From an uncultured Actinomycetota bacterium (GTDB lineage: Bacteria > Actinomycetota > Actinomycetes > JAHEKZ01), in contig CAWHIJ010000003.1 in NCBI GenBank assembly GCA_963829525.1, positions 992,001-1,056,000 of the forward strand: DNA of 64,000 nt, in the 5' to 3' direction. Below are positions 37,754-42,180 of the stretch, in pieces. The notes below the pieces were generated by a model. It was given only the letters and a program-made list of their open reading frames with translations. It was not told where the DNA came from and did not search any database. Within the stretch, counting starts at the first letter, position 1. Each line of letters starts with the position of its first letter. The translations under genes were made by a program, and so were the position numbers.

Positions 37754-38449
37754 TCAGCCCAATCGGCGGTTGACCGCCGCCAGCACTGCCCTTGCCACGG
37801 CATCGGTCTCGTCCCCCCGGATCACCGCGCTACCTGCCAGCGACTGAGCGCCGAGCCTCGGAACAGACAAGGTGATGACCACGAGGGCGACGGCATGAGT
37901 GCCCGTGTCGACGACGGCTGAGCTTTCGACAGCAGCCGGGAGCCCGAGCAGCTCGTCGAGCGCGCTGAGGGTCGCCGACGCCACCAGACGTGGGCGGGCG
38001 CTTGCCGCGGCTGCGCCCCGTTCGATGCCCACGAATGTGTCGCCGTCGAGCTCGAGTCGTACCTCGACCTCGATCTCCGACCCGGTACTGCGTATTCCGA
38101 TCTCGCTGATCATCGGACGCGCTTGCGCCTCGATCTCCTCGAGGATGTCCGCCGCAGGTGCCGGACCCGCTTCGGACATGTCGATGACGGTTGAGCCAGC
38201 ATCCTCAGTGGATGACTCGTCCTCGATCTGGACGACACTGACGATCCGGTGGTCGAGGTCGATGTCGAACTGGGCCATTGCCAACGACTGAACGTCGCGG
38301 ACAACCTGTTTCGCGGGCTTACCGGGGGCAGCTAGGACGTGCACCTCGGTCGGCTGTGCGTGGGCGTCGGTCACCACGCTGACCGCTCTGACTCCGGGGA
38401 TCTGCCGGATCGACTCTTCGAGGTCCGGAAGTAGGCGCAGGCTCGGCAT
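37754..38449 (-). CDS. Conserved hypothetical two-domain protein divergent from the HD-GYP locus
   Basis: EVHVLA..KPAKQVVRDVQS..DLDHRIVSVVQI, then an acidic linker, then a C-terminal AVARAVLAAVNRR; host-like codon usage. Confidence 0.8.
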   Translation of the reverse strand: MPSLRLLPDLEESIRQIPGVRAVSVVTDAHAQPTEVHVLAAPGKPAKQVVRDVQSLAMAQFDIDLDHRIVSVVQIEDESSTEDAGSTVIDMSEAGPAPAADILEEIEAQARPMISEIGIRSTGSEIEVEVRLELDGDTFVGIERGAAAASARPRLVASATLSALDELLGLPAAVESSAVVDTGTHAVALVVITLSVPRLGAQSLAGSAVIRGDETDAVARAVLAAVNRRLG

Positions 38450-38511
38450 AAAGGTGAGTCTCTCTCGGGTCAGGGGCACGGTGGCGTCACAGCTTCACGA
38501 TCGGCGGGCAG

Positions 38512-38931
38512 TCATGGAAGGGTCCCACGGTGGGCGGGGTCGGGCAGCGGTCGTAGTCCAGCCACGAGCAACCGGTAGGGCTGAAGCTGGCGGACAGGGG
38601 CCGGCTCGGCTTGGTCGATGACGTCCGCCGGGTGTTGGTCATCGGCCCACACAGGGGCCACCGGGGGTTCAATCAGGGCCTGTTCGGCCGCGTTGGCTTG
38701 GAGTGCGACCAGGGCAGGTGGGAGAACGGCTTCGGCGTGTTCGACGATGGCGCGTTCGCCGGCTCGCTGGAGCCAGCGAAGCCGTCGAGCGAGGTCGTCG
38801 GAGATGCTGCCGGCCGCAACGGCCTCGGTGAGGGCCGCGTCGAAGGCCCGTGTCGGCCCCGATCCCCGAAGATCGAGCACCGCGGCGACCAGATCGGCGT
38901 AGGCCGTGAGACGGCTTGGCTCAGCGTTCAC
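38512..38931 (-). CDS. Hypothetical protein
   Basis: 139-aa ORF with RBS GGAGGGGG; helical N-terminus, Pro-rich C-terminus. Confidence 0.7.
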   Translation of the reverse strand: MNAEPSRLTAYADLVAAVLDLRGSGPTRAFDAALTEAVAAGSISDDLARRLRWLQRAGERAIVEHAEAVLPPALVALQANAAEQALIEPPVAPVWADDQHPADVIDQAEPAPVRQLQPYRLLVAGLRPLPDPAHRGTLP

Positions 38932-39060
38932 GGTCCCCCTCCCCAGTGGTCGTCTACCCCCCGGGGAGCAGGTTACGGCGTACTGGTGGGGCCGCGAGGA
39001 GGAGTCCGATGACTACATGCTCCAAACGGGTTCAACATGGTTCTTTCTAGCCCTCCGCGA

Positions 39061-39076
39061 TAGCCTAATTGGGCTA
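39061..39076. promoter_or_regulatory. Palindromic site in the divergent promoter region
   Basis: TAGCC-TAATTG-GGCTA. Confidence 0.35.
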
Positions 39077-39191
39077 ATCATGGTCAAGGTTCGGCCTCAG
39101 AGGCCCCTGCTCCTTGACGTTCACACCTGTCACACCCTTCACTTCCGTTTCGGTGGTCTTTTCTTTTCTGAGCGGCCATCAGACAACTGAA

Positions 39192-39432
39192 GAGGGTGGA
39201 TCGGGGATCGGCAGCGGAAGTGCTGCTTTATCTCGTGTCGTTCCTTTGGGAGCACACACCTTGAGCGGAGCGGATGCCGCATGAGCCATAGCGGGGCTCG
39301 TGACATCTCAGGCAAGGGGTGATTCCCACACAATGAGCAAGCTTGTTTCCGCGGTTGAGCGTTTCCTTTCCAGCGGTGCTGGTTGGTCATGGCACTAGAA
39401 ACCGTTGCGCTGCCGATCCCCGATCCCCCCTC
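39192..39432. repeat. Long-range inverted repeat enclosing the small peptide ORF
   Basis: GGATCGGGGATCGGCAGCG (39198-39216) is the exact reverse complement of CGCTGCCGATCCCCGATCC (39408-39426). After one mismatch it extends via GAGGG (39192-96)/CCCTC (39428-32). Confidence 0.9.
39333..39398 (+). CDS. Putative 21-aa signalling peptide MSKLVSAVERFLSSGAGWSWH
   Basis: Read manually from ATG 39333 to TAG 39398; RBS AAGGGGTGA at 39314-39322; same strand as, and 58 nt upstream of, the first HD-GYP gene. Confidence 0.65.
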   Translation: MSKLVSAVERFLSSGAGWSWH

Positions 39433-39456
39433 ACCCTTCCCCCAGGAGTCGACCGC

Positions 39457-40896
39457 ATGCTGCAGCTGCGTCCAGCAGCGAAGGTGTACCTGACCGTCGT
39501 TACGGTCGGTGCCCTCGCTGCGCTGATCGCTGCCACGGTGCAGATAGTCGAAAATCCCGAGCACCTCAGTGTGCTGTTGGTGCTGGCCCCAATCTTCATT
39601 CTGTCGATCTACCTGAAGTCGCGGATGACGCAACAGGTAGACCTGTCGGCGAACGTGCCGATCTTGATTGCCGCCTACCTGATCGGTGGGTGGCAAGTTG
39701 CTTGTCTTGTCGGAGTCTCAGCTGTCGTGCTTGATCGGCGCAAGGCCCTGTCGCGCGTTCTCTTCAACAACGCGCAATGGGTGCTGATGGGCTTGGCTGG
39801 CGGGCTGATCTACGACGCGATGGGCGGCATCTCGATGCAGATGCTGCCCGGTGGAGGATTCCCTACGTATCTGCTTGGCGCGATCGTCGTCTCGATCGTG
39901 GCCGTGATCGGCGTCAACGCTGCGCTCATGCTCGGCATCTTGGCGACTCAGGAACAGATCAAGGCCAGCACGATCTGGCGAAACATGGTGCTCACCTCTG
40001 TTGGTCCCTACTTCGCCTACATGCTGCTGGGCTTGCTGATGGCCGTCCTCTGGTCGATCGGCGGAGGCTTTGCGGCTGCCCTTGTCCTCCTTCCACTGCT
40101 TGTCGCCCGCCGTGCCTGGAACCAGTACGCAGAGCAACGTGAGGCGTACGAGTCGACGATCAGGGCGCTGGTGCAGGCGGTGGAGACCAAGGACCACTAC
40201 ACGCGCGGTCACAGCGAGCGGGTGTCGCGCGCCTCGGTGCTGATCGCGCGAATCCTTAACATGCGCGAAGATCGCGTCGAGGCGCTGCGGTACGCGGGCA
40301 TCCTGCACGATGTCGGCAAGCTGGGCGTGCCAACCAGGGTGCTGCAGAAGACCGGACCGCTGAGCGACATGGAGTTCGCCGCCATCAAGCGCCACCCCAG
40401 GAACGGTACCGAGATGGTCCGCGGAATCGCCTTCCTCGAGGAGGCCTACAACGGCATCATGCATCACCACGAGCGGCTCGACGGTCGTGGCTACCCCTTG
40501 GGTCTGTCCGGAAACGACATCCCTGAGTTTGCCAGGATCATTGCGGTTGCCGACGCGTTCGACTCCATGACGTCGACGCGTTCCTACCGAGGAGCGCGAG
40601 ACGTGTCCGAAGCCCTGAGAGAGCTTGAGAACTGTGCGGGAACGCAGTTCGACCACGCCATGGTCCAGGCGTTGATCACGGCGCTGCAACGTGATCCGTG
40701 GACGACGGTGGCTCCATCTGAGAAGCGTCAGGTAGACGTCGAGCTGGGGTCGCCAACGTTCGACCACGACGACCCGGCGGCGAACCTGCCGACCGAGCCC
40801 GATGTCCAGGTGGCCGCCGAGGCGGCAGCCTCGGAGGCGCTCAACGCGCGAATGCTGCACAGGCGCGACGTCTTGCGTCGAGGTGATTGGTCATGA
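39457..40896 (+). CDS. Membrane-bound HD-GYP c-di-GMP phosphodiesterase (HdgA-like)
   Basis: About 7 N-terminal TM segments; KDHYTRGHSERV, LHDVGK, HHERLDGRGYP and VADAFDSMTS.R.YR are intact; RBS AGGAG. Position after sigR-rsrA matches Streptomyces hdgA as I recall it. Confidence 0.88.
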   Translation: MLQLRPAAKVYLTVVTVGALAALIAATVQIVENPEHLSVLLVLAPIFILSIYLKSRMTQQVDLSANVPILIAAYLIGGWQVACLVGVSAVVLDRRKALSRVLFNNAQWVLMGLAGGLIYDAMGGISMQMLPGGGFPTYLLGAIVVSIVAVIGVNAALMLGILATQEQIKASTIWRNMVLTSVGPYFAYMLLGLLMAVLWSIGGGFAAALVLLPLLVARRAWNQYAEQREAYESTIRALVQAVETKDHYTRGHSERVSRASVLIARILNMREDRVEALRYAGILHDVGKLGVPTRVLQKTGPLSDMEFAAIKRHPRNGTEMVRGIAFLEEAYNGIMHHHERLDGRGYPLGLSGNDIPEFARIIAVADAFDSMTSTRSYRGARDVSEALRELENCAGTQFDHAMVQALITALQRDPWTTVAPSEKRQVDVELGSPTFDHDDPAANLPTEPDVQVAAEAAASEALNARMLHRRDVLRRGDWS

Positions 40897-42180
40897 GACG
40901 AACGTGGGCTGATGAGTTCTCCGGTGGCTCGGTGCTGGTTGTTGTCGGTGGCCTGCTGCTTGCCGTCGCCGGCAGTTGCCGCCACAGCGTCCCAACCGGT
41001 TCTCGACCCGCAGATAGCTCTGGCGTTCGGTGCCTTGATCGCAGTTGGTGAGCTGGTCAGGGTGAACCTCCCCGGTGACCGTTCGGCTGCGCCGATCGGG
41101 GCGGCCGGCGGACTGGCCTACGCCTTGCTCGGCGACTTCCCTCAGGCGGGACCTGACGATACGACCTACGGGGTACTCCAAGTCGTGGCGGTCACCACGA
41201 TCGCCATCCTCGTCGGGGCCGTGCCGCACATGGCAGTCGGGCAGCCGCCGCGCCTTGAGTCGCTGGCCCGCCGCGTGCTGATCGTCGGGTTTGCCGCTCT
41301 GCTCTTCCGTCCGCTCTACACCAACGGAAACCTCGATGGGCTCGCTGACCCGAAGTGGCAGCTCCCGGCGTTCATGCTCGCCATCGTGCTCCTCTGCGGC
41401 TTGGTCGACGCGCTGCTGGCGGCCCTTGCCCGCTCAGGTCGAGAGCGCAGTCCGTTCACGGCCGCCGCACGCGACGAGTTCGGAGCGCTGCTCGGGATCG
41501 GTTCGGCGATCGGCGCCACCGGCGTCCTCATCGCGCTGGCTGCCGGGGTCATGGGTTACTGGGCGCTCCCCCTGTTCGCGCTTCCGCTGCTCGTGGCGCA
41601 GTTCTCGTTCCGTCGCTACGCGAGCATCCGGGCCACCTACGACCAGACGATCCAGGCGCTCTCCCGAGTCACCGAGGTGGGCGGCTACACCGAGACGGGG
41701 CATTCCCAACGGGTGGCCCAGTTGTCGGTCGCCGTTGGACGCGAGATGGGGCTCTCTGAGGACGACATCAAGGACCTGAAGTACGCAGCTCTGATGCACG
41801 ACATCGGGCAGCTCTCGCTCACCGACCCGATCTCCGGCGGTGCCACGACGCTGATCGCCCGTGACGAGCAGCGACGCATTGCGGCGTACGGGGCTGAGGT
41901 GATCCGGCAGAGCGGGATGGACCGGGTGGCGCACATCGTCGAGCAGCAGACCGAGCCTTTCCGGCGTCCTGGGCAGCCGTTCGACGCCAACATCCCCGTG
42001 GCCAGCCGCATCATCCGGGTGGCCAACGCTTACGACGACTTCGCTGGCGGATCGATGGAGAGCGTGCAGCGCATGTACGCCCTCGGCCGACTGCGCGAAG
42101 GAATGGCTGAGGAGTACGACCCCACGGTGGTCGACATCGCCAGCCGGGTTGTCGAGCGCACCATGCTGGTGGATGTCTGA
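40893..42180 (+). CDS. Membrane-bound degenerate HD-GYP protein (HdgB-like); probable +1 frameshift near 40971
   Basis: ATGA overlap at 40893 gives MRRTWADEFSGGSVLVVVGGLLLAVA, which joins ORF 40912-42180 if one G is removed. GHSQRV and MHDIGQ are present, but HHExxDGxGYP is replaced by QQTEPFRRPGQP. Confidence 0.82.

Follow-up and report, generated by a model that had tools for sequence, protein, structure and literature searches.

We analyzed a stretch of 64,000 nucleotides (the window) of contig CAWHIJ010000003.1 from an uncultured Actinomycetota bacterium, in which positions 37754-42180 hold a compact module built around a membrane protein of the HD-GYP type. HD-GYP domains hydrolyze cyclic di-GMP (c-di-GMP). 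The forward strand encodes a micropeptide of 21 amino acids (39333..39398; MSKLVSAVERFLSSGAGWSWH), composed of an amphipathic helix and a GAGWSWH tip and preceded by its own ribosome-binding site (AAGGGGTGA, 39314..39322). It is followed by hdgA (39457..40896), which encodes a 479-residue protein with a MASE9-like membrane domain and an intact HD-GYP domain, and by hdgB (40893..42180). Two unknown genes lie on the reverse strand: gene A (37754..38449; 231 amino acids, of unknown family), which travels with a structured RNA element at the peptide gene, and gene B (38512..38931; 139 amino acids), which we regard as accessory: among Actinomycetia loci of the window's type many have it and others do not. 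We conclude that the module is real and undescribed; its parts and their combination are apparently new, and there are precedents for a small protein tuning a membrane sensor. A literature search, from whose coverage subscription journals were largely absent, returned no description of the peptide, the RNA or their combination.

The micropeptide gene and its distribution

The first-pass annotation had proposed an unlisted open reading frame (ORF) with a strong ribosome-binding site at 39333-39398, and comparison with relatives bears this out. HdgA was searched against 61 genomes and the best 30 loci were taken (the window and L002-L030). A Trp-ended ORF of 13-28 amino acids precedes the hdgA orthologue by 56-105 nt in all 29 loci of relatives, the peptides of L022 and L023 being divergent in form. 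The in-frame ratio of nonsynonymous to synonymous polymorphism (pN/pS) is 0.08 among 13 genus sequences, compared with 2.07, 5.99 and 1.38 in other frames, and 0.23 among 19 family sequences, compared with 1.25-1.94; all three stop codons occur among the relatives. Because of these ratios and this conservation a chance ORF was ruled out, and the 21-codon ORF is, on comparative sequence evidence, a real and conserved gene that had escaped annotation. A 32-residue form beginning at GTG 39300 was rejected as the true product, its extra codons crossing a hairpin and the ribosome-binding site and being open in few relatives. The amphipathic character ascribed earlier to the N-terminal part likewise stands, as the moment of residues 2-13 was matched by 0.6% of 5000 shuffles. 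Family searches of Pfam and NCBIfam with the micropeptide, gene A and gene B gave no match for any of them. The counts of loci, gene A, RNA, matrix matches and helices reported here include genomes flagged as unpublished (G048, G050, G054, G060, G061 and G106), on which the conclusions do not depend.

A wider set was formed from the best 80 of 597 hdgA candidates, with peptide classes sorted by eye. Five of these loci are of the window's type, among them L060, where hdgA is broken and no peptide was called, and L065, which has no RNA element. Peptides of 8-35 amino acids with a G-x-x-W-x tip are found at 22 of the 80 loci, which are of a Streptosporangiales type; the shortest read MREGVSWA and MRASGVSWG. 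Another 10 loci of this type have no upstream peptide, and no comparable peptide was seen at any of the 43 Streptomycetaceae loci apart from one weak candidate in L085. The expectation that small ORFs with a conserved Trp-type end would precede orthologous HD-GYP pairs holds for the closest loci but not for Streptomycetaceae, and the Trp tip is not universal among orthologous peptides. The N-terminal part may be as short as three residues or form a hydrophobic helix, and no part of the peptide is kept as persistently as the C-terminal tip. Outside the phylum, two plasmid records from Bacillota carry gene A, the RNA motif, a peptide and an HD-GYP gene in a row. Two variants in the collection contain repeats: the Sporichthya locus L065 has tandem peptide ORFs 216 and 100 nt before hdgA, a 21-residue one of the window's type and a 9-residue one ending NWKWG, and L022 has a 28-residue ORF in which the NWKW tip is repeated.

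The HdgA membrane domain and its candidate ligand

HdgA is by its motifs an HD-GYP phosphodiesterase: the HD, HHE..GYP and RxY[K/R] motifs and the N-terminal Glu are intact, and HD_5 is matched at an E value of 2.8e-39. MASE9 is described as a membrane domain of eight helices that has conserved Asn/Ser and is joined to HD-GYP or GGDEF-EAL, with HdgA as its studied example (Galperin and Chou, bioRxiv 10.1101/2021.11.05.467447); in the section of that paper on MASE9 neither a ligand nor a peptide gene, a fold or an RNA is named. HdgA from the window falls below the family profile (PF20972), which is matched by 41 of 128 aligned relatives (best 1.3e-13). Its membrane domain was modeled with high confidence (predicted local distance difference test, pLDDT, 93) as eight helices, with the short hairpin and conserved Asn/Ser of MASE9. 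The best structural matches are S-components from transporters of the energy-coupling factor (ECF) type (Z 13.7, root-mean-square deviation 3.8 over 186 aligned residues), 14 of which rank above the next structural match (Z 7.9); Foldseek also places the S-component family first, weakly (E 0.12 and above). With these controls, the MASE9-like domain of HdgA is predicted to have the ECF S-component fold over a six-helix core. The S-component fold is known to serve as a receptor in 5TMR/LytS kinases (PMC11109136, a paper in whose main text MASE and HD-GYP are absent), and the membrane domain of HdgA would share it.

Co-folding of peptide and receptor, a check suggested by the first-pass annotation, gave a score of 0.61 for the membrane domain against 0.00 for the best of three controls, with a 32-codon in-frame ORF ending in the 21-mer as the partner and an interface made by peptide residues 9-21 only. 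Contacts agree to at least 97% between runs and the partner has a pLDDT of at least 67. The score mark used is reached by 116 of 157 solved pairs and 2 of 215 mismatched pairs, a calibration that holds roughly with the alignments used here. The tightest contacts join Gly17-Trp18-Ser19-Trp20 to Asn154, Asn104, Gln107, Met158, Phe103 and loop 62-67. Counting helices back from the cytoplasmic HD-GYP domain places the contacted loops on the HD-GYP side, and the loops on the side of the pocket average 1.8, 3.4 and 2.9 Lys plus Arg, compared with 0.8, 0.9 and 0.3 opposite. The peptide tip is thus predicted, with controls, to sit in a cytoplasm-facing pocket around Asn104 and Asn154. On the same two grounds, helix count and charge, the pocket appears inverted relative to S-components and an internal ligand fits better than a pheromone. 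S-components differ in having outside-facing pockets for small nutrients (PMC11109136), whereas in HdgA an extra last helix would invert the pocket and the candidate ligand is a peptide.

The link between peptide and receptor is well supported computationally. We think it slightly better than an even chance that the peptide is a genetically encoded intracellular ligand of HdgA whose supply is controlled on the RNA. The first-pass annotation had likewise proposed the peptide as a ligand or modulator of the membrane sensor, and the controlled co-fold favors that part by placing the tip in a conserved pocket; its pheromone-like input from outside is not borne out. A pheromone would leave the cell, perhaps being cleaved by a DUF5317 protein, and would be sensed outside or re-imported, giving c-di-GMP a cell-density input. 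We take the basic N-terminus, helix and aromatic tip to resemble precursors of peptide signals, and DUF5317, presumably similar to signal peptidase II, follows the hdgA/hdgB pair in eight genomes, being head to head directly after hdgB in G024, G026, G029, G035, G055, G058 and G059 and about 2 kb further on in G038; in a Natranaerobius record the annotated DUF5317 gene comes after the HD-GYP gene. It is also true that S-component pockets normally face outside (PMC11109136). The pocket loops here are nevertheless on the cytoplasmic side, peptides of 8-9 amino acids leave no room for an export leader, and no exporter gene was seen at the locus. DUF5317 was not found in five peptide-bearing genomes that are 97-100% complete (G020, G021, G027, G043 and G049) and so is not required, while in the window's family it occurs only elsewhere and not beside hdgB. 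We considered whether amphipathic peptides go with loss of DUF5317 and dropped the idea, there being no strict association. The literature search, with the coverage stated above, found no paper on DUF5317. The scan of the locus neighbors revealed no kinase, response regulator, exporter or processing gene of the Agr or Com type, and we regard the pheromone as unlikely.

The peptide could instead be a constitutive small subunit that stabilizes or assembles HdgA, or HdgA with HdgB, and carries no regulated signal. The predicted stable interface and the one-to-one linkage of the genes across Actinomycetota and in the two Bacillota records are what such a subunit would show. Opposed to it are the elaborate conserved RNA and dedicated gene A, which suggest a regulated supply, and the Streptomyces HdgA, which is made and reaches the membrane without a peptide (PMC6205966). 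This explanation seems quite improbable.

The residues of the pocket can be followed across lineages. Asn104 and Asn154 are both kept in 32 of 33 receptors of the window's type, in all 20 receptors that come with short-tip peptides, in 21 of 25 other peptide-bearing receptors (a group that includes L162, of the same class) and in 3 of 3 whose peptide is unclear. Outside hdgA, a second MASE9-like gene of this genome, with another output domain, has the Asn pair and two 34-residue peptides ending GAGxxWxN. Only 1 of 38 Streptomycetaceae receptors (L085) keeps both residues; the others mostly have Arg104, Leu154, Gly64 and Trp103. In a quick tree of HD-GYP domains, built on 92 of the 128 rows after leaving out 28 Streptomycetaceae and 8 close relatives, the 10 remaining Streptomycetaceae form one group (support 99) in which L085 branches first. 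The Streptomycetaceae pocket may accept a different ligand or be self-filled.

The pair of membrane HD-GYP genes that the first-pass annotation named for Streptomyces does exist. In S. venezuelae, an orthologous HdgA with intact motifs and a degenerate partner without GYP, HdgB, follow sigR-rsrA (PMC6205966, PMC13232838). These sources report no phenotype for hdgA/hdgB and suggest that an activating signal is missing. Streptomycetaceae differ from the window in having no comparable peptide, no AGCG RNA and a rebuilt pocket; as the lineage has lost the peptide and rebuilt the pocket, we suggest that hdgA/hdgB mutants of Streptomyces, so far the sole case studied, are uninformative about the family. 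Two further observations concern this family: its HdgA pocket is newly conserved rather than merely decayed (Trp103, Arg104, Asp158, His188 and His225), and its rsrA-hdgA gap (L061-L131) holds a conserved box, TCACCCGAACGTGCTAATC, before the likely hdgA -10, possibly a regulator site.

Structured RNA and gene A

The peptide ORF is embedded in a structured mRNA, the most surprising addition to the module. The first-pass annotation overlooked both this RNA and the status of gene A as a fixed part of the module. An AGCG-repeat motif (AGCGGAGCGGAT) with a hairpin lies at 39264..39304 on the forward strand, where 39280-39287 pairs with 39295-39302 and a third AGCG falls inside the loop. In 25 leaders chosen by position, the two AGCG blocks and the third in the hairpin loop are all invariant. 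Among 48 motifs, in which AGCG invariance holds by construction since they were picked by pattern, the stem is 86% paired compared with 60% after shuffling and at most 51% when slid, and all 8 pairs show two-sided changes. Covariation thus shows an RNA structure at the peptide ORF. It has no match in Rfam 15 (best E 1.6), and none at E<=0.1 in any of 16 loci.

Motif and ORF are enclosed by a longer closing helix. Its 5' arm (39198..39216) forms 19 perfect pairs with 39408-39426, and its z value is below -3 in 45 of 48 loci. The 3' side (39408-39426 and 39428-39432) belongs to a forward-strand region, 39408..39450, that ends in the hdgA Shine-Dalgarno region (CAGGAGTC, 39443-39450) at the base of the helix. 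In the window's family the helix base pairs with this Shine-Dalgarno, and L014-L019 show a compensatory swap from G-C to C-G. The base of the helix begins at a conserved element (GACAACTGAAGAG, 39182..39194, forward strand) that resembles the site in rRNA leaders and spacers and is able, through its first 8 nt, to base-pair with the ribosome-binding site of hdgA.

A peptide ORF adjoining an RNA structure over the next gene's Shine-Dalgarno is the arrangement of a leader peptide. A purely cis-acting leader would open the closing helix by its translation and free the hdgA ribosome-binding site, its product having no target. The peptide ORF stops some 10 nt short of the 3' arm, the Shine-Dalgarno with its compensatory change lies in the base of the helix, and 8 of 12 fourfold codons of the ORF end in U in this GC-rich genome, a share reached by none of 477 gene starts; such codons may keep the looped-out ORF unfolded. 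Selection at the amino-acid level, as seen in pN/pS, runs counter to this account, as do the persistence of peptides at the 22 Streptosporangiales-type loci that have no RNA element and the co-fold with its pocket pattern. As the sole function it is quite unlikely, and a cis role may operate alongside the ligand role.

The enclosing helix recalls the processing stems of rRNA. A matrix made from 9 rRNA sites and applied at >=10 bits matched 21 of 61 module leaders, compared with one among 61 reverse strands and none among 60 far-upstream controls, with the window itself below 10; a matrix made from the modules only ranked the pre-23S site of this genome fourth genome-wide. In the 16S leader-trailer helix, as predicted, the rRNA site takes part in pairing, and the genome contains the nusB family and an rnc motif. 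Leader-trailer helices are RNase III substrates (PMC10250234), and the site resembles the Bacillus subtilis boxA consensus AUGAUCUUUGAAA, which binds NusB (PMC13753749). In rRNA leaders, too, a similar sequence opens a long enclosing helix (PMC10250234, PMC13753749, PMC5725501); here, in contrast, the predicted helix encloses a 21-codon mRNA, and in the window's family the U-rich core of boxA is weak. Since the window copy has no U-rich part, we trust the reading as a processing stem over that as boxA. A CsrA-type site was discarded, as the AGCG blocks do not fit the ANGGA pattern. Two metatranscriptomes contain only 5-6% of sampled words and, over the unit that the helix brackets, one near-identical contig each (39175-39388 and 39214-39386); these are not proof of a separate transcript, because both end beside a variable codon and the stretch is better conserved than hdgA.

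The RNA and gene A occur together, in counts to which related genomes do not contribute independently. Gene A is full-length in 30 of 61 relatives, all 30 with the RNA, and the three genomes with RNA only are 60-88% complete. A model of the RNA built from the 48 motifs has 33 strong matches in the 61 relatives, most of them in its training set. Among 80 genomes of the phylum, all 18 strong RNA matches are among the 28 with gene A and none among the 52 without it, though several gene A genomes have a diverged or absent motif. A sequence-only scan of metagenomes for the motif returned at least 120 stretches. Of the 11 stretches in which the stem was present and at least 700 nt followed, 9 continued with a MASE9-like or HD gene and 9 with a peptide ORF; of 52 stretches without the stem, none had a MASE9-like or HD gene.

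Gene A, which was found in 79 of 301 genomes of the phylum, belongs to a large unnamed family (1,920 clusters at E<=1e-10). Atlas searches gave unnamed clusters or nothing, with no match for gene B, and a sequence search of the Protein Data Bank with gene A gave only matches of E 0.0075 or weaker. The gene most likely starts at 38449 and not 38479. Its model (pLDDT 85) has an N-terminal alpha/beta domain like BolA and CDF C-terminal domains (middling, Z about 8), and its C-terminal domain resembles the regulatory domain of LeuA/CimA (Z 9.5, root-mean-square deviation 3.1 over 109 residues; Foldseek E 6e-5), with weaker matches to double-stranded-RNA-binding domains. An HdgA-like membrane domain is encoded within 6 kb in 35 of 40 gene A loci, picked from the 79 genomes by score and contig room and including one paralogue of this genome. 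Most of these membrane-domain genes stand behind a hydrophobic peptide of 24-34 amino acids whose tip often, not always, contains Trp. From its co-occurrence with the RNA we infer that gene A binds the AGCG repeats.

It could also be that the RNA is a riboswitch-like sensor, or that the peptide acts on the gene A product, while the pocket binds an unrelated small molecule. The invariant AGCG blocks of the position-chosen leaders, the ligand-binding type of regulatory fold in gene A and the pocket kept at nine peptide-less loci would suit this. Against it, three copies of a 4-mer are more suggestive of a protein site than of an aptamer, and in five peptide-bearing genomes without the RNA motif (G059, G033, G021, G359 and G360) gene A was not matched and the peptide was always found before a MASE9-like gene. 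We consider this alternative very improbable. Two observations extend the family: a second, distant two-domain paralogue (L201:5289-6110, G000:C3:937289-938110) has no MASE9-like or HD gene detected within 5 kb, and in several genomes from other classes (L197, L199 and L228) gene A appears in two frames, whether by a real split or by sequencing error.

Proposed mechanism, precedents and neighboring features

If the peptide is an intracellular HdgA ligand, the following sequence of events would be expected. The amphipathic helix would hold the peptide on the inner membrane face, from where the G-W-S-W tip is predicted to enter the cytoplasm-facing pocket of the MASE9-like domain. Occupancy would be relayed along the last helix and, at the HD-GYP domain, set c-di-GMP breakdown, with HdgB, catalytically dead by its motifs, as a probable partner. 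On the RNA, the closing helix would bracket the peptide ORF and hide the hdgA ribosome-binding site in the window's family; RNase III probably releases a separate small mRNA from it, and the AGCG repeats are the probable target of gene A. The direction leans slightly towards inhibition, such that loss of a short-lived peptide would switch the enzyme on.

Several observations weigh against an intracellular ligand supplied in this way. The co-fold was run with the 32-residue ORF, and its controls were unrelated proteins rather than a scrambled tip or a Streptomyces receptor. Asn104 is replaced in four peptide-bearing receptors, while all nine peptide-less Streptosporangiales-type receptors keep both Asn. 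No such ORF was seen at five other MASE9-like loci from three of the genomes that keep the pocket without an adjacent peptide, free-standing peptide genes not having been searched genome-wide. Because Streptomycetaceae form a single group on the tree, their change of pocket and peptide is one event and not a statistic. Outside Actinomycetia the majority of the peptides are hydrophobic and have a basic N-terminus; as membrane helices with the N-terminus inside, they would have their tip outside, away from the pocket. Finally, the window's rRNA-like element does not have the TT of the rRNA site.

A bolder generalization would make of MASE9 an inverted S-component that receives micropeptides inside the cell, with the peptide's mRNA in this module transcribed and excised in the manner of a miniature pre-rRNA, by way of a boxA-like site, a leader-trailer helix and RNase III, and with gene A in control by binding the AGCG repeats; in our view this is doubtful. 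If true, it would tie c-di-GMP breakdown to the state of RNA processing and translation through a short-lived peptide. The signals of membrane c-di-GMP enzymes are mostly unknown, and the peptide is a first candidate ligand for MASE9, with two predicted contact residues and a predicted membrane side. The module also adds an RNA element that occurs in Actinomycetota and as far as Bacillota, together with a linked protein family that is large and unannotated. In small-protein modulators such as MgrB-PhoQ and in pheromone systems such as Agr, Com and RRNPP, a tiny gene product also sets the output of a sensor, be it membrane-bound or cytoplasmic. The present module differs from these in its receptor fold and c-di-GMP output, and its locus has neither a kinase nor a response regulator nor an exporter.

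The membrane domain of HdgB is related to that of HdgA but has no Asn pair, and its degenerate HD-GYP domain has no GYP or HHE motif, so that HdgB does not pass as an HD-GYP phosphodiesterase. Of the translationally coupled HD-GYP pair described in the first-pass annotation, the coupling is real, as the genes join by an ATGA overlap at 40893; the second gene has lost its motifs and its frame is broken here. The break follows about codon 27, where there is one extra base near 40972-40974. It is private to this genome, hdgB being intact in 5 of 5 genus relatives compared, and may be an assembly error. In L032, which belongs to this genome too, a MASE9-like GGDEF gene has a start that likewise seems to be displaced by a single base, a hint of assembly indels.

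Upstream of the module are a sigR-type sigma factor gene (SigR/SigH type, TIGR02947), rsrA (TIGR03988) and the bL37 gene; downstream of the HD_5 gene pair are a biotin-carrier gene and a pilT-type ATPase gene. No standard sigma-70 promoter was found where one was looked for ahead of the peptide operon. A conserved box beginning CTTGACG (39113..39148, forward strand), near-invariant across 13 aligned loci, is probably the promoter or a regulator site of that operon. A conserved minus-strand hexamer, TAACCT/TAGCCT at 38970-38980, is likely the -10 of the transcript that runs divergently through gene B and gene A. The bL37 gene (24 amino acids, NF047428; 37608-37682, reverse strand) lies between rsrA and gene A, a position kept in many such loci.

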